From: Octopus sinensis
Lineage: Eukaryota
DNA: 64,000 nucleotides
Assembly (NCBI RefSeq): GCF_006345805.1
Contig: NC_043003.1
Coordinates: 4,960,001 to 5,024,000, forward strand
Direction: 5' to 3'
Positions 5,522 through 58,075 of this stretch are shown here, in pieces. Made by a program: the position numbers and the translations under genes. The notes beneath the pieces were generated by a model. That model searched no databases, had not been told where the DNA came from, and saw only the letters and a list, made by a program, of their open reading frames with translations. Numbering within the stretch: position 1 is the stretch's first letter; every line of letters starts with the position of its first letter.

Positions 5522-5849
5522 CTTATAATTAAGGGCTAAAGAAGGTGATTCTAAAGCCAATACACTGATTTATCCACTTATAATCCACTTGTTACAGGAA
5601 AATTGAACTGATAGCGGGCAACTAACCTTGAAATTAAAATTTTCTAAAGGTTAGTTGCCCGCTTTCAGTTCATGTAACAAGTGGATTATAAGTGGATAAA
5701 TCAGTGTATTGGCTTTAGAATAACCTTCTTTAGCCCTTAATTATAAGATGTTTATACTTCAACCGTAAAGGTTTTTTTAATATACTGCCACGCTTTTTGA
5801 TGGAATCCCTTTCTGTAGAGAAAGGGACTTCATCCTATATTATTAGTAG

Positions 5850-5851
<2 letters not shown>
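5520..5851. mobile_element. Foldback element (about 105-bp arms) with right-side extension, in (TA)n
   Basis: Arms 5520-5629 and 5647-5749; extension 5750-5851; no HHR core seen. Confidence 0.8.
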
Positions 5852-5904
<53 letters not shown>

Positions 5905-5905
<1 letters not shown>

Positions 5906-7820
5906 TGAATTCAATTATCATTGTATCTCTAAGAAAGGAGGCGCTAGCCATCGATTACATCAACATTGAGGAAACAGAACCAGCGTCCATACATGAAATG
6001 AACTCATGCTCCGCAACTGGTCCTGATGGCTTCCTAGCTATTCTCCTGAAGTCACGTAAGCAGGCTTTAGCGAAACCACTTCAGATTCTTTTCCTAAATT
6101 TCCTTGCAACAGGTAAACTTTCTAAAAAGATAAAAGAAGGCATGATATGCCCTATTCACAAAGGTGGAAGCAGAGCAGAGGCCAAAAACTACAGGCCAAT
6201 CTCTCTGACTTCACATATCATTAAAGTCATGGAACACATCATCAGAAAAAAAGTTGATAATGTTCCTAGAAGAAAATGACCAACTGAACAATACGCAGCG
6301 TGGCTTCCGTCCAGGAAGAAGCTACCTCACGCAGCTCCTAGAGCACCTTGACTGGGTTTTGAAACATCTGCTTTTGAAACAGCAGCTTCACCTATCAGAT
6401 ATCATCGTTAGATACCTGACCTTGCAAAGAGATTTGGTATGGTAAATCATGGCATGATATGTCATAAGACAGAGACCATTGTTGGTAAACTGGAAGAGTG
6501 TCTTCATGATTCCCTTAAAGAGAGAAATCAGGCAATTGCAGCCAATGTTAGCCTTTCTGACTAAACTCAAATCCTTAGTGGCGTCCCTCAAGAAACTGTT
6601 CTGGGGTCATTATTGTTCATAATGGCTCGTGTAGACATGCCCACGGTAACTCGGACAGCCACTGTCACTAGCTATGCCAATAATACAAAATTATCACTGG
6701 CAGTAAAATATGAAAACGACGACGTAATCTTACAGATTTCGATATACAGATGGACCGGAATAAACAACATGCAGTTTAATGTGGGAAAAGGCGGCGAGCT
6801 GGCAGAAACGTTAGCACACCGGGCGAAATGCGGAGCCGTATTTCGTCTGCCGTTACGTTCTGAGTTCAAATACCGCCTTTCATCCTTTCGGGGTCGATAA
6901 ATTAAGTACCAGTTACGCACTGCGTTCGATGTACTCGACTTGATCTCTTTGTCTGTCCTTGTTTGTCCCCTCTATGTTTAGCCCCTTGTGGGTAATAAAG
7001 AAATAAATATGGGAAAATTTCAAGCACCACTATCAACTCGCGAATGCACTACAATCTGCATATACAGGACCCAAAGGCACTATAGTACCAGAGTCACAAG
7101 CAGTGAAAGACTTGGGGGATCAGAATGTGCAATGACGCATCATCTTATATGCACATTACCATGAAGGCAGCAAAAAGCATAGAACTGGTAGAATGGTTAC
7201 TGAGGTCCTTCAAGACAAGAGACGAAGAAATAAACTGTGGAGAACCTTTGTTCTCAGCCGCCTAGACTACTACTTCCAGTTATGGTCATCACATAGTGTC
7301 AAACTAACAGCGCAGTTCGAAGCATTTCAACGCCATTACACTAAACGTTTGAAACAGAGCAGCTGATGAGCTACAAGTATAGGCTGAGAAATCTGCAACT
7401 TTACTCCCTGGACCGAAGGCAAGAGATAAGCAATAATCTGCGAATGGAAAACTCTAGGTCTAGTACCTAATTTCGCCATTGCCTGTTATACAAATGCCAG
7501 AACTGGCCATTGTATTTTACCAAAAGTACCATCCACTCCATCTAAATTCAGGACTAAGTACTGCAATTGTCTAGGGATCAAATGCCCAGTTCTTCAATGC
7601 CCCTGCCACAAAAAATTAAGAAATCTGCATAAGGTGGAACAAGATGTCTGGGAAAAGGAACTAGACGTACTCTTCTCCACAACACCAGGTAAACCAACAG
7701 CTGGGACAAAGGCACATACAGGTGTGGGGGTGTGAAACACACCAGACTGAGGAGATCAGAAAGACAACGGTAATGCACCAGGAGGACTGCAGCCGCGTGG
7801 CTGAAACGAGTAAAAGAGTA
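5905..7820 (+). mobile_element. 5'-truncated decayed CR1-group LINE (reverse transcriptase), interrupted by a SINE
   Basis: SATGPDG, PIHKGGSRAEAKNYRPISLTS, GFRPGRS, GVPQ-like and YANNTK (YADD-like) motifs; frameshifts; tail ctgaaacgagtaaaagagta. Confidence 0.9.
6790..7005 (+). mobile_element. SINE family 1 (tRNA-derived, Meta-domain-like centre), near full length
   Basis: A box tggcagaaacg, B box gagttcaaat, gcctttcatcctttcggggtcgataaattaagtacc; TSD aat(g/a)tgggaaaa at 6778-6789 and 7006-7017. Confidence 0.9.
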
Positions 7821-8571: not shown

Positions 8572-9646
8572 ATATATCACTTATGATAAAAGGCAGATTT
8601 TCTCTGCCTCCCAAACCGTTCGTTTTTTATACAATTCTACAATATAGAATTTCTTCAATTGGAATTTACCTATCATTTTTACAAGTAGATTCCATCGGGT
8701 CGTGGCATGTAAAGTTTTTTCAATTTCACCCCCAATTAAGCAAAAATTCGAGAAAAGTAAATATTTTACGATTCCCCTCTTTCATTTCAAGTGCTTCACT
8801 CCTACCATTACCACTACACTTTCTCCTCCTTTCTCTTTGCAAGTGTGCTACAATTAAAGTGAAAGGATTTATATAAAAGGGATGAGCAATTAATACTGGT
8901 CATCCTTTTTGCTAGAAGAAGATCCGCTGTTGTCTTATATGCTACACCACTGGTTTTCATTTCATATTAATCAAATTAATATTCAATTTTTCACCCTTAT
9001 TATGTGTGTGTGTATTAGCAATTCGTATAAAATTGCATCAATGACTTGAACTTGAATAAGTGGTTTCACATAAATGGGGATACATTAAAAAGGTTTGTTG
9101 TTATTATTATTACTGTTTGACTATTGTAATCACGTTTGTTGGTTCCTCGTCAGGGAAACGTTGTTGTGTTGCATTTGTTAAATAATTGTAAATCGTAACC
9201 CTCCCCCTTTCGGAGAAGGGGCTTTGGTTATTGTTTTCAAATTGAATTGTGTCCCTGTTTGGGGAAATTGACAATATTTTCACCGCCTTTACGGAAGCAT
9301 TTTTGTTAAAATGCCTTCGATAGAAGAAAGTCCAAAAATGAATTTCGCTGCAGCCGTACACTTCTATACAAGAGTGGGGACAATATCCAATTGATCGAAA
9401 TTGCAAGAGACGGGCCTACAATTCCAGTCTGTTATATATTTTGAGTATTTTTATCACTAGCGATATCAAGATATAACTTTCTATTTTGTATTTTATGTGT
9501 AGATGTATATATATAGATGTGCATGTAATATGTACACATATATATATATACATATATACATGCATAATATATCTACCCATACACACACGTACACACACAC
9601 ACATACATAGGGGCAGGTGTGGCTGTGTGGTAAAAAACTACGTTCG

Positions 9647-10960
9647 AAGATACTGTACTTGATATGGGCGGTAGCGCCTTGCCGGTCTATGGCCTACCTT
9701 CAACAAACCGGGAAGGCACAAACACTCTGTCTTCACATTTGCTGCGTGAGACATGTTTTAATGTTGACGAGCTTGCCGAGTACATAGCCGACAATGAGCC
9801 AAAGCTCCCTCCAGAACAGAAGTTCGCTTACAACTCCGTTGTTAATTCAGTCCGGGCTAAAGCTGTGGGGATATTTTTCCTGAACGCTCCTGGGGGCACT
9901 GGGAAAACTTTTCTCAACAAATTAATATTGGCTGAGATTAGGCGAACACAAGGCATTACCCTAGCTGTGGCATCATCTGGAATTGCGGCTACTTTGTTGC
10001 CAGGCGGCAGGACAGCTCACTCCACTTTTAAGCTTCCGCTTGACTTAGCGAAGACTGAGACCCCAACTTGCAACATCAGTAACAGCTCCGATCAGGCAGA
10101 AGTCTTCAGACGATGCAAGCTTATCGTTTGGGATGAATGCACGATGGCCCACAGAGGTGCTATTGAGGCATTAGATAGATCTCTGAGAGACATCAAACAC
10201 TCTTCAGCTCCCATAGGAGGCATAACACTTCTTCTTTCAGGGGACTTCCGACAAACACTTCCCGTTATTCCCAAAGGGACTAGAACTGATGCAGTAAGTG
10301 CGTGTCTTAAGTCATCCACATTGTGGCCACTGGTGAAGACTCTCAAACTTCACACCAATATGCGTGCTCATATGCGACGTAATATCACATCAGCAGCATT
10401 TTCTCACTCATACCCTCCTTGCACTTGGCGAAGGCAAAATACCAGGGGATGAAAATGGTAATATTGCCATCGATTCCATTTGTACCATTGTTAAAACGCC
10501 TTCTGATCTCAGAGATGCAGTGTTCCCAGATCTACAAGCTAATTATCATAATATGGATTGGATTGGCCAAAGGGCTATTCTGGCCCCGAGGAATAAAACT
10601 GTTCACCATATTAATGATGAAATGCTAAAACTCATTCCTGGGGATGTCTATGTATATAAGTCTATCGATACAACTCCTGACCCAGAGGACGTCATCAACT
10701 ATCCAATAGAGGTACTCAATTCCTTTGAGCCCCCCGGACTACCACCACACATTCTCAAACTTAAAGTTGGTGCCCCTATAATGCTCATTAGAAATTTGGT
10801 TCCCCCAAAACAATGCAATGGTACACGTTTGATCGTTAAGTCCTTATCTCCCACCGTAAACTTATATCAATATTTGCCTGAATAATCATCATAATTCAGT
10901 GCAATCATTAACAGTACTTTCAAGCAATTCAGCCCCGAGCATCGCCGGGAAAATCTGCTA

Positions 10961-14379: not shown

Positions 14380-15156
14380 GAAATAAAAGACTGGAAATTT
14401 GGTATATCCTAAAAGTGGCGAGAAGTCTTTTCTGGAGAGAGTACTATTGGAAATTGAGAAATGTCTGCATCAGTCTCATGAAAAGGAGAGAGCAAATAAA
14501 GAAGCTTGGGTTATAGAAAATATCAAGTCAAACCCTGAAGCTTTCTTTAAGTTTGCCAAAGAAACAGCCTCAATACGCCACATGATAGGACTCCACGTCC
14601 AGAAGATGGCTCCCTTACAGGAAACCCTATATGGATAAGTGAAATACTGAACGTGCAGATCATTACACCGCTGGGACACGGACAGGTGAACGAACCAGCA
14701 GAATTCTTTACCATTTTACCTGTAATCGAAGAGGCAAAAATTGAGTACATGAACATTGAAGGTGTAACACTGGCCATAGATGAAGTCGACACAAACTCAG
14801 CTGCTGGCCCCGATAGATATCCAATGATCCTTCTCAAATCATGCAAGCGAGCCCTTGAAAAACCATTGCAGCTTCTTTTTCAGAGCTCCCTTGGAAGCGG
14901 TAAGCTCCCAGACAGACTGAAGGAAGGGATAATATGCCCTTTCTATAATGGAGGAATCAGAGCAGACGCTAAAAATTATAGGCGGAAAACTTGAAAGAGT
15001 GGCTGCATGACTTTCTAAAAGAAAGACGTCAGGCAGTGGTGCCAGTGAAGCCACCTCTACGGAAGCACAAATAGCAAGTGGAGTTCCACTATCTTGGGGC
15101 CACTGCTATTGATAGTGGTCCTCTCAGACAAGCTCTCAGCTGCTCAGATAGCCACA

Positions 15157-22286: not shown

Positions 22287-22497
22287 TGTGAAATAGAAAG
22301 ATGAATAATCTTGTAGTGGATAATCAAAAGTTTAACCGATACCTTAGTAGCAAAAATCACAGCAGTGAACAGCACGGTTGGAGGTACAACCATCTGGCGT
22401 TGCAACCGTGCGTTGGTGCGGATAATTGAAATTAAAACATATTGGTGAATTGAAGAAATGGAGCTGAACGCAGATTGAACAGAAATCGTTTATTTCA

Positions 22498-22577
22498 TTC
22501 TACACGTGTTTCGAAAGGCACAAATTACCAAAATCCGATTGAATAATGGGACCATATTGTGTCTTTCTCTTCAGGAA
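22498..22577 (-). ncRNA. Type I hammerhead ribozyme (mirror copy)
   Basis: Reverse complement of 22741-22820. Confidence 0.8.
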
Positions 22578-22740
22578 GAAAAAAGGAAATCCGTTGGAAA
22601 AACAAAAACAGAACAGAGGCAGAGCAAAAAACAAATCGAACTGTGCTCCTAAGAGCCCATGGCTCTTAGGAGCACAGTTCGATTTGTTTTTTGCTCTGCC
22701 TCTGTTCTGTTTTTGTTTTTCCAACGGATTTCCTTTTTTC

Positions 22741-22820
22741 TTCCTGAAGAGAAAGACACAATATGGTCCCATTATTCAATCGGATTTTGGTAATTTGTGC
22801 CTTTCGAAACACGTGTAGAA
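22741..22820 (+). ncRNA. Type I hammerhead ribozyme with long stem II
   Basis: ttc CTGAAGA gaaagacacaa...ttgtgcctttc GAAA cacgtg TA gaa; AATAAA at 22824. Confidence 0.8.
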
Positions 22821-22902
22821 TGAAATAAAACGATTTCTGTTCAATCTGCGTTCAGCTCCATTTCTTCAATTCACCAATAATATATATATATATATGTATA
22901 TT

Positions 22903-25864: not shown

Positions 25865-26655
25865 ACATAATTCCTCATCTCTTAAATATAGAACTGTATT
25901 AATTGAGACATCAAAACATTGTCCTCTGTAACATTTTGATTTCGGGAACCCGACCTTATCGTTATTCTCTCATCCATCCTTTAAAGAGCGAGTATCTGAT
26001 TTATATAATTATCTAATTATAGAAATATCTGATTTATAGAATCATGGTACTATTAGATCAACCCGCTTCGACTTACTGGTATTTAATTTTTGGCACCGAG
26101 GATCAGACAAATTCTCCGTTATTTTCTGAGTTGCGATCAGTGATTCTCTGACAGTAGATGCTTCTGGGATTTCCTGCCCAGTTTAACACTCTTCGTCGTA
26201 TGACTGCTTTTTTTACTTCACTGCATTTCATCCCTTCTGGACTCATCACGTGGTTCTTTTTGTCATTCACAGTAATTCAATTGCATCCTCTACGACATCC
26301 TTCAAACAGGTTTTCACCCTATAACTAAAATGCAATACATGAGCAGTGGTGGGGATCAGGACATATATTTCTCGAATTATTCCCCAAGACACCTAATGAA
26401 GGCTGGAGGTTATATCAGCCGAAACGTTGAGTTAACAACAAACAAGATGAGGACAAATATCCGTCAAATGTAAATAAAGTACATAATTCCTGATCTCTTA
26501 AATATAGAACTGTATTAATTGAGACATCAAACATTGTCCTCTGTAACATTTTGATTTCGGGAACCCGACCTTATCGTTATTCTCTCATCCATCCTTTAAA
26601 GAGCAAGTATCTGATTTATATAATTATCTAATTATAGAAATATCTGATTTATAGA
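25865..26655 (+). repeat. About 175-bp direct repeat (25865-26040 and 26481-26655)
   Basis: Near-identical copies beginning acataattcct. Confidence 0.9.
26380..26514 (+). mobile_element. 5'-truncated copy of the tRNA-HHR element
   Basis: Matches 46558-46688 inverted; HHR cac CTAATGA aggctg...cagcc GAAACGTT with a G5A core change. Confidence 0.85.
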
Positions 26656-30455: not shown

Positions 30456-32147
30456 ATATGAAGAAAAAGAAGCAGCCACAATTTTGGACAATAATTATTA
30501 GCGCTTTCGTTCAGTTTTCGAACTCAAGACAAAATCAAAATTGTAAAAACAGATTTCATTGTTCTTTTATATGAATCGGATGTTTTTTTTTTATTTTGGC
30601 GGAGGAGAATATTATTTTTGTTTTGAAAAAAAAGGGGAGAGTGAGAGAAAGAAAAGCAAAGAGGCGGGGAATAGAGAGAAATGATCATATATATATATAT
30701 ATATATATAGGGATTTTGACAACTGTTGTTCTTATAGAACTTACATATACCTGAGAAAGAATACTAGAACCATTTTACCACTGATTAGGAAAGATATCTA
30801 ATGTAGCTACTTGGCAAAGTAATTCGTGAAAAGATCCCTATTGAATTTTCTTATCCAAGCAAGCAAGAAAAAGAAAAATAGATCCTACAAAAGGAGAAAA
30901 GATAGTAAAAAAAAAAACATTTAAGCAGGCCCTGCTTTATCATATAATCTATATTGTACAGAGTAGCTTCCAGCTAAATATACGTGCAAAACTCATTTAT
31001 GAGCTTTGATTAAATGTACTCGGAGAATAGATTGAATTAGAAACAGTACCAGAATACTTTTTAAAATGCTGACTTTATTTTCCTAATTTATGAATATTGT
31101 ACTAATATTTAATGTTTGTTCATGCATAACATAGAATTACACAGAATATGGAACTTGGCTATACAAATGTAAAGGAATATACATTTTCATAAGGGCGCTT
31201 TTTAAATTTTTCAGTGATAGCCGCACTCTTCTCCATTTTCTTATTTCTTTCATTCTATTTCCCAAAATTGACATTTTTGAAAGGTCACCAGGCCTTGTGA
31301 GAAAATGTGTTTAGTCACAATTATGTCGACAGGTATATAACAGAAAGAAAAAAGAAACGAGAAAGAAAAAAGAAATATGCTTGGAAATGAAATTTTTATG
31401 AATTGACCACATCAAAATGGAACAGAAAGCTTTCTCCCTCTCTATCTATGCTTTCTCACCCTTTTTTATTATTTTTTCTCCTCTTTCGTGGCTGTCCTAA
31501 AACCTCCCTCTCTCTCTCTATCCATTTCCCTCTCTTTACTTCTCTCTCTCTCTCTCCTATTTTAAAAAAATGCAGAAACAATATTCTCCTCTTCTGAACA
31601 AAGCAAAAACGCATCCGATTCATGTAAAAGAACAACGAAATGTTCCGTCTTTAACATTTTGATTTTGTCTTGGCGAGGTCAAAAACCGAACTCAAGCGCT
31701 AATAAAGGATTATCCAGAATTCTGACTGTCCCCTTTTTCCCATTATTCAATATCTGTACCCCACTTCAAACATTATGTTTTGCAAACAACTTGCACATGC
31801 AAGTGCAACTAGTGGTGACCTCCGCATACAAGAAGACAACAAGTGTATGAGGTCATCCGCGGAAAAAGCGCACCGTTTCAGGGCCTACCTCTCGACAGCA
31901 TGAATGCACACCACCCAACCTACAACTGATATGAGGCCCCGCTTGCTAGATCAGCTGGTTATTAAATAAAGCTCAATATTCTTCTAGCCATCGCTCAGCG
32001 TCTCTTTTTAACCAAATGCAGTCGATAGATATATGGAGGGATCGATAGATAGATATGTGTATATATATATATATATATATAATTTTAAGACAGATATTCC
32101 GGAGGCATCGATACAGACGCCTCGTGTATATTTGTCTCTCCCAGGTT

Positions 32148-32245
32148 TTTTACTGATGAAGTGTGACCTATGGTAGATTAGCTTAATTTAATTTAATTAA
32201 GCTAATTTAATCATTAATAACACAGAAACGATGCATCGTCTAAAA
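32148..32245 (+). ncRNA. Type I hammerhead ribozyme, copy 1
   Basis: tttta CTGATGA agtgt...acaca GAAA cgatgcatcg TC taaaa; predicted cut after 32240. Confidence 0.8.
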
Positions 32246-32620
32246 GTTGAATTAGGGTAAATGTTTTTAAATTTTCACCTAATTTCTGAATTACTACTAC
32301 TTGGCGGTGTGAGTTATGGCTGCTCTTTCTGGTGGACGAATGGCCTGTTAAGGGTCACTCCTAAATTGTTATATTTATATATTTAGTCTTTGACTATTTT
32401 CTCTTTTCCACTAGGCCGCTGGTAGCGATAAATTCTATTGAATTTTTTGCTACCCTAAATTGACTAATTGATAATTTTCTGAATAATTCTGAGATTGAAT
32501 CGGCAGTTTATATTTACTGCTGATAAGTTTGGCGCGAATACGTCGGTCTTGAAAATTTTAAGACAGATATTCCGGAGGCATCGATACAGACGCCTCGTGT
32601 ATATTTGTCTCTCCCAGGTT

Positions 32621-32718
32621 TTTTACTGATGAAGTGTGACCTATGGTAGATTAGCTTAATTTAATTTAATTAAGCTAATTTAATCATTAATAACACAGAA
32701 ACGATGCATCGTCTAAAA
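32621..32718 (+). ncRNA. Type I hammerhead ribozyme, copy 2
   Basis: Identical to copy 1; predicted cut after 32713. Confidence 0.8.
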
Positions 32719-32935
32719 GTTGAATTAGGGTAAATGTTTTTAAATTTTCACCTAATTTCTGAATTACTACTACTTGGCGGTGTGAGTTATGGCTGCTCTT
32801 TCTGGTGGACGAATGGCCTGTTAAGGGTCACTCCTAAATTGTTATATTTATATTTAGTCTTTGACTATTTTCTCTTTTCCACTAGGCCGCTGGTAGCGAT
32901 AAATTTCTATTGAATTTTTTGCTACCCTAAATTGA

Positions 32936-33012
<77 letters not shown>

Positions 33013-46557: not shown

Positions 46558-46905
46558 CAGTTCTATATCTAAGAATTGAGGAATTGTGTTCATTATTTAC
46601 ATTTGACGGGTATTTGTGCTTATCTTGTTTGTTAACACAACGTTTCGGCTGATATACCCTCCCGCCTTCATCAGGTGTCTTGGGGAAATTTCGAACCTGG
46701 ATTCTCATTCCTAAGGTATTTTTCGATGATATTATTATCATTATTATTATTATTATTATTCAGGTCACTGCTTGGAACTGAACTCGGATTCTTGGGATTA
46801 ATAGCCCGCGCTCTTAACCACTATGCCATATGCCAGTGGGCAACCGAAAAGTTGTGTTAACAACAAACAAAATGAGGACAAACATCCGTCAAATGTAAAT
46901 AATGT
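46558..46905 (-). mobile_element. tRNA-headed SINE-like element with HHR and an inverted 3' fragment
   Basis: Head 46834-46761 (tggcatagtgg A box, gagttcagttcc B box), (AAT)n linker, HHR 46678-46635, inverted arm 46843-46903. Confidence 0.82.
46635..46678 (-). ncRNA. Minimal type I hammerhead ribozyme
   Basis: acac CTGATGA a ggc...gcc GAAA cg T T gtgt. Confidence 0.75.
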
Positions 46906-47339
46906 AAATAAGTTACCTTTAATCATTTAGGTTTCCTGGAGTATATATTATCAATAATAATGATACGTATTATTACGAAGTTGAATAGCATTACTTTTAT
47001 TTCCTTTTTATATACATCCAGTTTTACATAGACCTACACATGTTTCAAATGTACCGATTAGGGACCGTTGAATTTGCAGCCCTTCTATGATACCGATGCA
47101 GCTTCTTCACGGTCTTCACTTCAATATCCTTCGATTTAACTGTTTAAGGTTTTTCGGTTGTCCGCTCTGCGTTGTACGATGTGGAGTTGTTCGTTAATTC
47201 ATACTTGGACTATCTTCAGTTCAAGTTTTGATATGATGATCACTTATAGCCCATTATTTCAAAACATTCTGTTCTTTAAATATTTATTACGCATTTATAC
47301 CGAGCAAAGGTGAATATTCTCATGTACAAATGTCTTCCA

Positions 47340-47705
47340 TCTTTAAATGTAAACTTTGGTAAACTTCTTCTGTATATAGGTCACATTTCTGAGAGTGCAA
47401 CTGCACCAATTTTCAAGAAGAGACTAGCTAATCACTTAAGTTCATTTCGAGATAAAAATAAACGATTCCAAACAAGTGTGCGTAAACTAATGTGGTCCAT
47501 TGAAGACAGAAACAAAGACAGTACAATCAATACGGAATTAATTAGTGCTGCAAAACCACACAGAGTTGGAACTAATAAATGTGACCTGTCTTTAAAAGAA
47601 TTTTACTTAATGTTTACATCTAAGGGCAATATAAGGAATTCTAAACAGAAACAAGCTTTAAGATGCTTGCACATGAGAAAATTCACCTTTGCTCAGTGTA
47701 AGTGA
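47340..47705 (+). pseudogene. PLE GIY-YIG endonuclease C-terminal fragment
   Basis: YIG...FKKRLANH..SFR...T..RKLMW...AKP...CDL.LKE...N...RCLHMRKF pattern typical of PLE endonucleases; no RT upstream. Confidence 0.8.
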
Positions 47706-47880
47706 GTAATAAACATTTAAAGAACAGAATATTTTGAAATAACGAGCTATAAGTGACTATCCAATCAAAACTTGAATTGAAGATAGTTCGCCTCTAAATT
47801 AACGAACAACTCTATATCATACGACGCAGAATTGATAAACGAAGAACTTTAGACAGTTAAATCAAAGGATATTAAAATAA

Positions 47881-47966
47881 AGAGCCTGAAGAATTTGCGT
47901 CAGTATTAGAGGAGAGTTGCAGTTGCAAAGGTTGTTAATCGATGCAATTGAAACATGTGTAGGTCT
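47881..47966 (+). ncRNA. pLTR hammerhead with long stem II (partly decayed)
   Basis: agagc CTGAAGA atttgcgtc...gatgcaatt GAAA catgtg TA ggtct; mirror copy at about 47028-47114. Confidence 0.65.
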
Positions 47967-48093
47967 GTGTGAAGCTGTATATGTAAAAGGGAAATAAAAG
48001 TAATGCTATGCAACTTCGTAATAATCTTTATTATACATATATGCATATAGTATGTATACATATCCAGATATATGTTTGTGTAATTGTGTGTGA

Positions 48094-54240: not shown

Positions 54241-55075
54241 ATGCCCTGATGCAGTACCAGACAGTGGCTCTCATGGCTTCTGATCTTAACTGATTGGAAG
54301 TGTTATCATGTACATTGTTTTGTCTTGGTATATAAGATGGGCTACAGCAAATATTCTGCTCAATACCACAGATTTGCTTGTCAGTTGTTTGGCCGTAACC
54401 AGTTGAGCATGTCCCTTAGTGGCTGACAATATGTGCATCTCTGATCACAAGCAGAAGTAGTGGGGGAGCATCATAGCCATGTGCTGAGAGGGATTCTTTG
54501 GGCTTTGAATAATTCACCTTTGGAAACATGGGTATTTTGTTCAACATTCTTAAACAACCCTTGCTCATGGACCTTTTGAGCGGGATGGGTTACTCGACCA
54601 GAAGAAAATTCTAACTGGGCCCCACCTGCAAGGTTATGCGCTGTTTATCTTGATATGAGATCACCATGTCGTGCACATATGGGTGTGATGCATGTGCCTG
54701 GTATACCCTTATCAGACGGGTAGTCATGATGTGTATACTGGGCTTCGTATATTTTACCCCAGTGTCGTTTTGATGGCATGCACTGCTCTCTCACTCAATA
54801 ATAATAATAATAATAATAGTTCATCATCCTTAAACAACCCTTATTCAGGGACCTTTTGAGCGGGATGGGCTACTCAACCTGAAGAAAATTCTAACTGGGC
54901 CTCACCCGCAAGGTCACGCGCTGTTTATCTTGATATAAGGTTACTATGTCGCGCACATGCGGTTGTGATGCATGTCCCTGGCATACCTTTATCAGACGGG
55001 TAGTCATGATGGGTATACTGGCTTTCGTATATTTTGCCCACTGTTACTTTGATGGCATGCAATGCTCTCTCACTC
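54241..55075 (+). mobile_element. Two copies of a non-coding (AAT)n-tailed element (54241-54796 and 5'-truncated 54819-55075)
   Basis: 54819-55075 matches 54539-54796; both end ctctctcactc(aat)n. Confidence 0.8.
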
Positions 55076-55101
55076 AATAATAATAATAATAATAATAATA
55101 A

Positions 55102-58075
55102 TAGAAAAAGAGGAAAGTAGACGGACAGATGGAGACATGGTGGAAGCGCAGAATTGAAGGCGATATTTTAACTTTGCGTAAAGATCTGAACCGCATAAAA
55201 GAGCGGTCCAAAGGGCAATGGAAAACCGGAAAAATAAAATGCAACTGCATATCTGGACGTGAAGTACCAAATAGAAACGAAAGTGTTCAAAACTATCATC
55301 GAAACCCTAAAATATTAAAGGTGCAGCGCTACACTGATCGCATGTCGCAGTTCCAGCAAAACTGGTTTTACTCAAATAATCAGAGGCAGTTTTTGTAAGG
55401 GCTTAGGGAGAAATACAGAAGATAATACACCTCCTGAAGTAGAAGAAACCCGCAAAATTTGGGATAACATCTTGGGGAGAGAGGTTTCGCATAAGCACTG
55501 TGCTGAGTGGGTCCGTTCTGTGAGATCCGAACTCCATCTATCGGAGGCTCCACGAGAGGACCACGTGAGCATACCAACGGAAGATATAATTGCACAGATA
55601 TTAAAAGTGCCAAACTGGAAAGTGGCAGGACCAGACGGAATTCAAGGCTATGGGCTGGAGTCGTTTGGGTCAATACGCGAGTATTGCGTTGCAATTAGAC
55701 AATTGCTTACAGAGCCGTGCAGATCCTGCGTTAATGAAAGATCGATCAAAGAGCAATGAGGTTCGCAATTACCAATAAATTGCTTGACTTAACTCTCTAT
55801 GGAAAGTATTAACAGGTACTCTCCCAGGGAAAAGATATACACTCCTTGCGGAAAACAATCTGTTGCCAGTAGAACAAAAGGGTGCCGAAAAGGATCCAAG
55901 GGTACCAAGATGTGGGAACTACGGAAGTCAAACATAAAGATTATCCCTATTGTCATCGGAGCGTTGGGTTCAATACCACCCAATCTGAAAAAAACATCTG
56001 AAAACTTTAGAAATACCCTACAACCCAGATGTATTGCAGAAGTCGGCATTACTTGGAACTGCACCCATATTGCGTAAAGTAGTCTGTCTGAGGTCTTTGT
56101 TGTGACTTGAAACCCCCGGTAGACACAATGTCTTCAATCAACAACCTCACCATTTCGAATGCTGTGCGACGTCTATGATGATAATAATAATGATAAGACG
56201 TTATAATGAAGAACTGTAAACGGTATCCCCAAATACTAATGCATGGACTGGATAGACTTCAAAAAGGCTTACGATATGTTGCCGCATTCGTGGATTTTGG
56301 AAACACTCGACATGTGTGGAATAGTTGAGAACATATGTGCCCTGATAATGAACAGCATGCCTAGTTGATAAACACGTCTTTCCTGTAACAACCAGCACTT
56401 AGCCGAGATAACAATCAAAAGAGGTATCTTCCAAGGAGACTCTTCTTCACCTCTGTTATTTGTTATAGCCTTCATGCCACTTTCTGTAGTCCTACGCATA
56501 ATCAACATGCACTATGAGCTGAGAAAGAATGGACCCCGTCTCAATCCCGTTCTCTCCGTGGATGATTTAAAACTGTTCGCAAAAACAGAGCCTGAAATGA
56601 AGAGGCTGGTTGAGAGTGTGCAAATATGTAGCAAGGATATAAGGATGGAATTCGGTATCTCGAAGTGTGCGGTGTTTACTTTGAAGCGGAGGAAAAGCGA
56701 AAATCGCAGGGGTATAGAATTGCCAAACGGAGAGAGAATGGAAGATCTGGATGATGATGGGTACAAGTACTTCGGGATCCAGGGGCTGGACAATATCTTG
56801 CATAAAGAAATGAAAGACAAGGTCATCACTGCATATTTTAAGCGCCTCAAACTCCTCTTGAAATCAAAATTGAACTCAAGGAAACTTGTGACTGCCATCA
56901 ACAAATGGGCTGTTGCTGGAGTCCGCTATAGTGAACCCATTCTGAGATGGACACAAGCGGAGGTTGACCAACTCGATCACACTACCCGAAAGACAATGAC
57001 AATATATAGTGCCCTCCACCCTAAGGTAAATGTACACAGGCTCTGCCTTAGAGTACGGGAGTGCATCAACATTGAAAGAAAAACATGGTAGAATGTTTGG
57101 TATACAGCAAAAAAGAACTACTACAGTATGCTGCTAGTGCCGAAGGAATTAACAAAAATGGACCTGAGAAGAGTGCTCATGAATTTCGATCAAGAATAGC
57201 CAACGAGAGAGACGAAACCCTACGCCGTATGGAATTACATAGTTAGAATCTCTGCGAAACCAAAGAATTAAAAGACCAGGAAGCGTCATGGAGGTGGCTC
57301 ATCAAAGGTGACCTAAAAATGAATGCTGAAAACATAATCATCGCTCCCCAGGAATTAAATACCCATTCAGCAGCAAAGAATATATATACCACACAAGTGC
57401 ACCAGATCTCTGCAAAATGAGTGAGAAGAGGGTCGAAAGCGTGAATCACATTGTTAGAGCTTGGGAAAGACTTGCGCAGAAAGAGTACAAGCATAGACAT
57501 GACAAGGTAGTCCAAAACCTCCACTGGCTACTATGCTGTAAGTATTGATATGAGGTTAGGGGTTCTTGGTACCAACATATACCGGAAAAGATAATGGATG
57601 AAAAGGGGAAGACAAAAATCCCCAGGGACTTTTGATTTCCAGGTAGGCAGGGTGTTAGAGCACCGAAGGCCGGATAATAGTAACCTTTAGGAGGGACAAA
57701 ATAAGATTGCCTAATAATTGACGTAGCAGTGCCAGGAGATCAACATATTATGAAAGAAAGAGAAAAGGTTGATAAATAAGGAGACCAGAGAATTGAGATC
57801 TCTAAGATGTGGCAGCTACGAGAGTCAAACATAAAGATTATCCCTATTGTCATCGGAGCATTGCGTTCAATACCTCCCAATCTGAAAAAAACATCTGAAA
57901 ACCGTAGAAATACCCTACAATCCAGATGTATTGCAGAAGTCGGCATTACTTGGAACTGCACTCATATTGCGTAAAGTAGTCCGTCTGAGGTCCTTGTTGT
58001 GACTTGACAAACCCCGGTAGACACAATTTCTTCAATCAACAATCTCACCATTCCGTATGCTGTGCGACGTCTATG
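55102..58075 (+). mobile_element. Decayed Dong/R4-clade LINE (RT, zinc knuckle region, RLE) in (AAT)n
   Basis: WWKRRIEGDI, NWKVAGPDGIQG, EQKGCRKGSKGT, WIDFKKAYD, GIFQGDSSSPLLF, VDDLKLFA, YKHRHDKV, RPD, KIIPIVIGAL. Confidence 0.92.
55907..56192 (+). mobile_element. Extra copy of the same element's 3' end nested in the RT region
   Basis: About 90% match to 57804-58085, with its own (GAT)(AAT) tail. Confidence 0.85.

Follow-up and report, generated by a model that had tools for sequence, protein, structure and literature searches.

A 64-kb octopus window (the whole stretch of DNA that was analysed) contains a dispersed, non-coding tandem of a 473-bp hammerhead-bearing unit that very probably belongs, as a class, to the retrozyme-type, non-autonomous derivatives of Penelope-like elements (PLEs). 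It is likely a new metazoan non-LTR retrozyme, putatively moved by Penelope-like enzymes. As direct observations we have the anatomy of the insertion, the recurrence of its head-to-tail junction, the single template of its two units and a variation that preserves the RNA fold; a many-copy family follows from sequencing depth. The account that we favour, with moderate confidence, is that the insertion is a young copy of a non-autonomous, non-LTR octopus retrozyme family, made from a circular template and placed in a TA microsatellite by a borrowed PLE reverse transcriptase and endonuclease. The helper is presumably a Penelope-like element, as suggested by the hammerhead type, the TA target, a GIY-YIG-like fragment and the abundance of PLEs in octopus (6.83% of the O. 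vulgaris genome according to the O. vulgaris repeat paper, whose text and supplement make no mention of ribozymes).

Anatomy of the insertion and its hammerhead motifs

The insertion is a two-copy tandem totalling 1.82 units on the plus strand, in which a full unit 1 of 473 bp (32081–32553), circularly permuted relative to the cleavage site and starting 160 nt upstream of the cut, is followed by a partial unit 2 of 387 bp (32554–32940). It is framed by a (TA)11 tract on the left (32060–32081) and a (TA)35.5 tract on the right (32940–33010), presumed to be the two halves of the target microsatellite, and both of its ends lie within (TA)n, masking any target-site duplication. When aligned, the two units are identical in 386 of 389 columns with no substitutions, and differ by two indels in low-complexity runs (2 nt lost from an AT run, and a single additional T). 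These values agree with the reading of this DNA made earlier from the letters alone (hereafter, the sequence-only reading), which had described a 473-bp unit repeated 1.8 times, almost identically, between two (TA)n tracts. Its statement that the unit is non-coding is likewise borne out, the longest stop-free frames round the circle being 48 codons on the plus strand and 52 on the minus strand (GC content, 34%). From cut to cut, the predicted monomer and candidate circle (32241–32713, plus strand) is again 473 nt long.

Elsewhere in the 64-kb window no further copies of the unit were found, no LTR-internal-LTR layout was seen at the 473-bp unit locus, and none of the 37 frames of at least 70 aa between 28000 and 38000 resembled a reverse transcriptase or endonuclease by eye. 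That the other copies are single units attached to a PLE reading frame, a case that the sequence-only reading had set against its own proposal, is unlikely, no coding frame being attached at this locus. ARAGORN reported no tRNA, the 473-bp repeat was absent from the Tandem Repeats Finder output, and matches to the A and B boxes of Pol III promoters occurred only with one mismatch, on both strands and at a chance-like density. The window is rich in microsatellites and (TA)n makes up 5.7% of it, so that a single TA insertion is only modest evidence for targeting.

Hammerhead ribozymes carry the consensus boxes CUGANGA and GAAA, and positions below follow the standard hammerhead numbering. Each of the two units holds a type I hammerhead on the plus strand, with a CUGAUGA box, a GAAAC box and helices I–III, as had been proposed, the base of helix II being non-standard. 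Hammerhead 1 (32147–32246) is composed of helix I strands at 32147–32152 (5′) and 32241–32246 (3′), the boxes CUGAUGA (32153–32159) and GAAA (32225–32228), and a fully palindromic helix III of 12 nt (32228–32239), with a predicted cut after C32240. Hammerhead 2 (32620–32719) is identical to it, with CUGAUGA at 32626, palindromic helix III at 32701–32712 and a predicted cut after C32713. The GUC ends at 32240 and 32713, 473 nt apart, were recovered where they had been placed, and the self-complementary helix III proved to be a perfect palindrome in each unit. Two details required revision: helix I, given as UUUUA/UAAAA, comprises 6 bp including one G.U pair rather than 5; and the base of stem II, given as an A-A mismatch, is indeed irregular but is better read as an unpaired A after A9 together with an extra A before G12.

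The arm that carries helix II (32160–32224, plus strand) is 65 nt long and runs from an extra A through a 4-bp stem, a 5x5 internal loop and a 19-bp AU-rich hairpin to a second extra A, which precedes G12. A32160 is the base left unpaired between A9 and G10.1, and an extra base at this place is typical of Penelope-type hammerheads as PMC4209133 describes them; the further extra A is A32224, which sets the predicted G32161–C32223 pair (p 0.8) off from G12. An alternative register of helix II with two extra 5′ bases reached p ~0.01 vs 0.8 for the favoured one. No loop 1–loop 2 contact motif was recognised in the unit's hammerhead. A strict hammerhead descriptor (helix I of at least 5 bp, helix II of at least 4 and helix III of at least 5) matched none of 100 Markov-resampled versions of the window, and a loose descriptor gave a mean of 0.17 matches per resampled window. 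Rfam returned no match at gathering score across the window and, at E up to 10, 14 weak matches within 32000–33000 with no ribozyme among them, a miss that is probably due to the 65-nt helix II arm.

Predicted folding and a possible route of spread

The plus-strand monomer is predicted to adopt a branched fold with 10 hairpins (−134.4 kcal/mol, z = −6.4) that none of 100 shuffled sequences equalled; the minus strand, too, is more stable than its shuffles (z = −5.3), a behaviour shown by hairpin-rich DNA. One predicted hairpin spans the unit-to-unit junction. In an 860-nt transcript the 12-nt palindromes of the two units cross-pair (p ~1), and the active fold, by energies that take in secondary structure but neither Mg nor tertiary contacts, costs 6.3–6.9 kcal/mol per dimer half vs 15.1–15.7 kcal/mol in the monomeric form, 8.3 kcal/mol in the circle, +4.9 kcal/mol in the isolated ribozyme and +13.3 kcal/mol for the full double hammerhead. 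Helix I has a pairing probability of ~0 in every computed ensemble, the circle and the 1.8-mer included, and ribozyme activity is therefore uncertain.

A predicted blocking strand (32541–32547, plus strand) pairs in the circle (p ~0.6) with 32625–32631, which comprises the last helix I base and the CUGAUG of hammerhead 2. Hammerhead 1 has no such strand upstream, because the insertion begins downstream of it. One junction variant in the family disrupts the blocking-helix pair at 32544 (p 0.61). As a model, the folding predictions favour multimers that cut as a double hammerhead and a circle whose core is blocked.

On the account that we favour, read-through or array transcription would produce an RNA with two or more hammerheads, and the 12-nt palindromes would pair mutually into a double hammerhead that, according to the folding prediction, would cut after 32240 and 32713. 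A host ligase of the RtcB type would then close the ends, as in established retrozyme biology, where both the closure of circles by RtcB-type ligases and their copying into multimeric cDNA are on record (PMC7229834). Within the circle, the complementary strand would sequester CUGAUG and protect it from recutting. Finally, a PLE endonuclease would nick (TA)n, and the reverse transcriptase would prime at an AU-rich spot and run 1.82 laps.

A bolder form of this proposal, which we consider doubtful, would see in the unit a cephalopod retrozyme that is active and carries its own switch: the palindrome would restrict cutting to the double hammerhead in multimers, an anti-core strand 80 nt upstream would lock the ribozyme within the circle, a device known from viroids and plant retrozymes, and an abundant 473-nt circle would target TA microsatellites via a Penelope-like helper. 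The predicted lock bears on how animal retrozyme circles stay closed and, if the switch were true, it would provide an RNA-only answer to how they avoid self-recutting.

A many-copy family and the template of this copy

The stretch is contained in 20 of the 24 listed sequencing runs (9 studies and 3 organism labels, none recorded as RNA). Contigs from four runs were aligned to 31700–32553, a stretch of 854 bases that comprises unit 1 and its left flank, and 2602 contigs of run X1 and 2702 of run X2, which stand under different organism labels, matched it. The whole unit is covered in both of these DNA-type runs by many overlapping variant contigs, and the summed depth over its inner bins ranges from 69,571 to 815,164 (X1) and from 158,168 to 522,857 (X2), compared with 18–60 for all but one of the 16 individual contigs listed for X1 and X2. 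Summed depth is no copy number, but these values are otherwise hard to explain, and we infer a many-copy family. With a hammerhead in each of two consecutive non-coding units and such a family around them, the retrozyme-like HHR-to-HHR tandem architecture that had been proposed is upheld.

In the contigs of the four runs no sites at which many molecules start or stop were reported over the stretch. Two runs guessed to be RNA, X10 and X20, cover the unit and also the flanking repeat, the unit being no deeper; their contigs show neither level nor strand, and they are neutral as evidence on expression. ADAR editing was considered as a source of A>G changes and rejected, the counts of A>G and T>C being similar (11/9, 14/14, 16/17 and 8/13).

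Single-contig evidence bears on the junction between units: one contig of X2, with a depth of 54.7, leads from 32542 back into 32104 across a diverged form of the junction between units, and therefore documents head-to-tail continuity at another locus. The family variation tables that we used are limited to the best-supported rows: 40 of the 145 for substitutions, 12 of the 45 for indels, 15 of the 23 for joints and 24 of the 472 for loose ends. Both units in the window carry 32219A, which accounts for 3.9% (X1) and 11.5% (X2) of the family's depth, and 32247T, which accounts for 0.07% (X1) and 1.1% (X2); they also agree at three common polymorphisms. The two rare alleles common to both units imply a single template for both, and the 1.82-unit A-B-A layout, with its start 160 nt before the cut and both cut sites intact, implies that this template was longer than one unit. 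Two kinds of template answer to this, an uncut multimer and a circle copied over more than one lap. Standing alone and dispersed, with private alleles in each of its units, the 1.8-mer is a clean footprint of reverse transcription beyond unit length.

Zero substitutions over 386 sites bound the pairwise divergence at ~0.8%. With a calibration that equates a JC distance of 0.09 with 25 My (PMC13282606), the insertion would be about one million years old or less, an estimate that gene conversion would bias towards youth. The sequence-only reading had proposed a young insertion made by more than one lap on a circular template; the single template of more than one unit and the lack of substitutions speak for it, but its circle is not distinguished by them, since a linear multimeric transcript leaves the same DNA.

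Variation within the family was compared with the predicted fold for 15 variants, which are selected best-supported rows, some on the same contig and not all independent. Nine of them fall at confidently paired sites and all nine keep the pairing, mostly through G.U pairs, which hold on the plus strand only (chance of a kept pair, 0.55 per transition and 0.005 jointly; 0.05 for the five table-3 rows alone). Read by hand, the family's majority allele at 32247 would give helix I a seventh pair, a helix I variant on a loose end turns G.U into G-C while retaining the extra A, and one helix II variant eliminates a bulge. Neither extra-A position (32160 and 32224) has a variant among the best 40 of 145 substitution rows, a loose end retains the first, and both look like family features.

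The foremost alternative retains the same family and the PLE helper but dispenses with the circle, so that an uncut linear multimer of a homogenised array or of a pseudo-LTR stack would serve as template and the hammerhead would be slow or vestigial. We regard it as possible, though unlikely. The weak helix I and the non-standard helix II base would suit a vestigial ribozyme, but the axolotl hammerhead HHR_Amex2 remains able to cleave despite a U.U mismatch at the base of helix II, and cleaves better as a dimer, which sets a precedent for the irregular base of the octopus unit (PMC7229834). PLE-type hammerheads are weakly active in vitro (PMC4209133), and just one of nine predicted Xenopus dimers cleaved in vitro, the other eight being inactive (Li, Clavereau and Pollet 2026, bioRxiv 10.64898/2026.07.22.740005, hereafter Li 2026); against this, circles were present in all three animal species assayed in PMC7229834. 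Furthermore, PLEs and the non-autonomous Chlamys elements build head-to-tail partial tandems (Craig 2021, PMC8557442), and a homogenised array would also yield two units with common rare alleles, whereas the family's fold-preserving variation, with alleles that strengthen helix I, suggests selection on RNA structure and ribozyme and favours the circular template.

Spread at the DNA level is improbable; this copy would then have arisen without an RNA intermediate, as a satellite or by local duplication, in tandem, of an old fragment from a PLE terminus. Local amplification that turns PLE ends into tandem repeats is a topic of Li 2026, and the differences between the two units are indels in slippage-prone runs, but the A-B-A layout requires a template that was already more than one unit long, the B-to-A junction is present in another, diverged copy, and the insert adjoins TA tracts at both ends and has no second copy in the window, as expected of a dispersed insertion rather than of the edge of an array. 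Still less credible is an assembly artefact in the form of a false duplication: the units show no substitutions and no contig of the four examined runs spans the locus, yet two indels separate the units, the predicted fold crosses their junction, and that junction recurs, diverged, in DNA under another organism label. The one-off local duplication or artefact that the sequence-only reading had held against itself is thus unlikely, given the many-copy family and the recurring junction. An endogenised viroid-like replicon, to which size, strong folding and the hammerhead might point, is largely refuted, since the minus strand of the element has no hammerhead core and no other ribozyme family matched (ribozymes are therefore not present in both polarities), the fold is branched, the unit exists abundantly as genomic DNA, and the 11 loci recovered in a pattern scan for relatives (6 metagenome and 5 viral) share just a 15–17-nt motif, with no relative and no tandem among them.

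Relation to known elements and to neighbours in the window

The metazoan non-LTR retrozymes described by Cervera and de la Pena (2020, PMC7229834) have units of 220–240 nt in coral, 350–390 nt in mussel and 330/350 nt in axolotl. Like them, the octopus element consists of non-coding, low-GC tandem units in many copies, each with a type I hammerhead; also shared are a predicted circle with strong self-pairing and a helix III whose palindrome lends itself to cleavage as a dimer. At 473 nt, however, the octopus unit lies above the ranges given in that paper (170–400 nt and 150–450 bp), and it differs from the members presented there in its 65-nt helix II arm, its 12-nt palindrome and the extra bases flanking helix II. 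Its circle is predicted to have a blocked core, in contrast to most animal circles in the same paper, which, some mussel ones excepted, leave the core free. The unit falls within the 51–972 bp range of Li 2026, and its two consecutive hammerhead units correspond to the working idea stated there. The 35 species sampled in that preprint comprise 31 vertebrates, 3 insects and 1 coral, with no mollusc among them; it ties animal retrozymes to PLE pseudo-LTRs, and the octopus window does contain PLE-like remains.

The hammerheads of PLE pseudo-LTRs, as characterised by Cervera and de la Pena (2014, PMC4209133), are weak, dimeric and marked by an unpaired base between 9 and 10.1, a G10.1-C11.1 pair and a palindromic helix III. 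The octopus hammerhead resembles them in the unpaired base at 9/10.1, G at 10.1, the palindromic helix III, a large helix II and an ill-defined loop 1; it departs from them in having no attached reverse transcriptase-endonuclease frame, a helix III longer than minimal and an extra A before G12. PLE-type and retrozyme features are thus mixed in one ribozyme, which fits the proposed PLE origin. An autonomous PLE is not indicated, there being no reverse transcriptase plus GIY-YIG frame between pseudo-LTRs and the insert being bounded by TA on both sides. With regard to the target, Naiad PLEs are biased towards (TA)n and Neptune PLEs towards microsatellites (Craig 2021), and these elements share with the octopus unit microsatellite insertion that masks target-site duplications as well as partial-tandem insertions, Naiads occurring in Octopus; in contrast to the octopus unit, both are autonomous and coding, and Naiads as described there have no hammerheads.

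In the literature searched we found no cephalopod retrozyme, although the supplementary lists of PMC7229834 may hold one; for the giant squid genome, 235 Rfam hammerhead_1 matches were counted in PMC6962438 and are not analysed further in what that paper reports of them. The octopus element would thus extend animal retrozymes to cephalopods, a modest surprise given that the class itself is established.

Several other elements in the window were noted. The left flank of the insertion (31758–32047, minus strand) is a decayed copy of another many-copy repeat, and the majority letters and loose ends of that repeat family point to a GAAAC box and two CUGAUGA boxes, the latter separated by ~105 nt, on the minus strand, so that it may represent a second, older hammerhead-bearing PLE-type element on the same TA tract. 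At 22453–22879, a near-perfect inverted duplication centred near 22660 adjoins (TA)n at 22880 and carries in each arm a hammerhead-like motif (22744 on the plus strand and 22574 on the minus strand) whose helix II measures 55 nt and whose palindromic helix III measures 8 nt; the duplication has the look of an inverted PLE insertion head. Minimal PLE-type hammerheads with an extra A after A9 lie at 46647–46683 (minus), 26372–26513 (plus), 59029 (minus) and 3835 (plus), the first two belonging to one repeat family (87% alike).

The GIY-YIG-like reading frame (47280–47705) sits inside a 360-bp inverted repeat (46969–47329 and 47667–48025, 81% alike) and was called by the Atlas feature search only (23% of one cluster), protein searches giving nothing at E 0.001 and no Pfam family being matched. 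Two head-to-tail copies of a SINE-like 280-bp sequence, 88% alike and each with a terminal (AAT)n, occupy 54539–55097. LINE-type reverse transcriptase fragments were identified at 55319–57091, 5734–6279 and 14551–14994, with an RVT_1 match for 56372–57091 only and the rest assigned by eye. Lastly, a frameshifted remnant of a Helitron-type Pif1 helicase extends over 9634–10885 and points to an octopod as the likely host, since the top three matches of its frame at 9634–10452 come from Octopus bimaculoides (82–84% identity), compared with at most 66% for other animals among the 120 matches listed.
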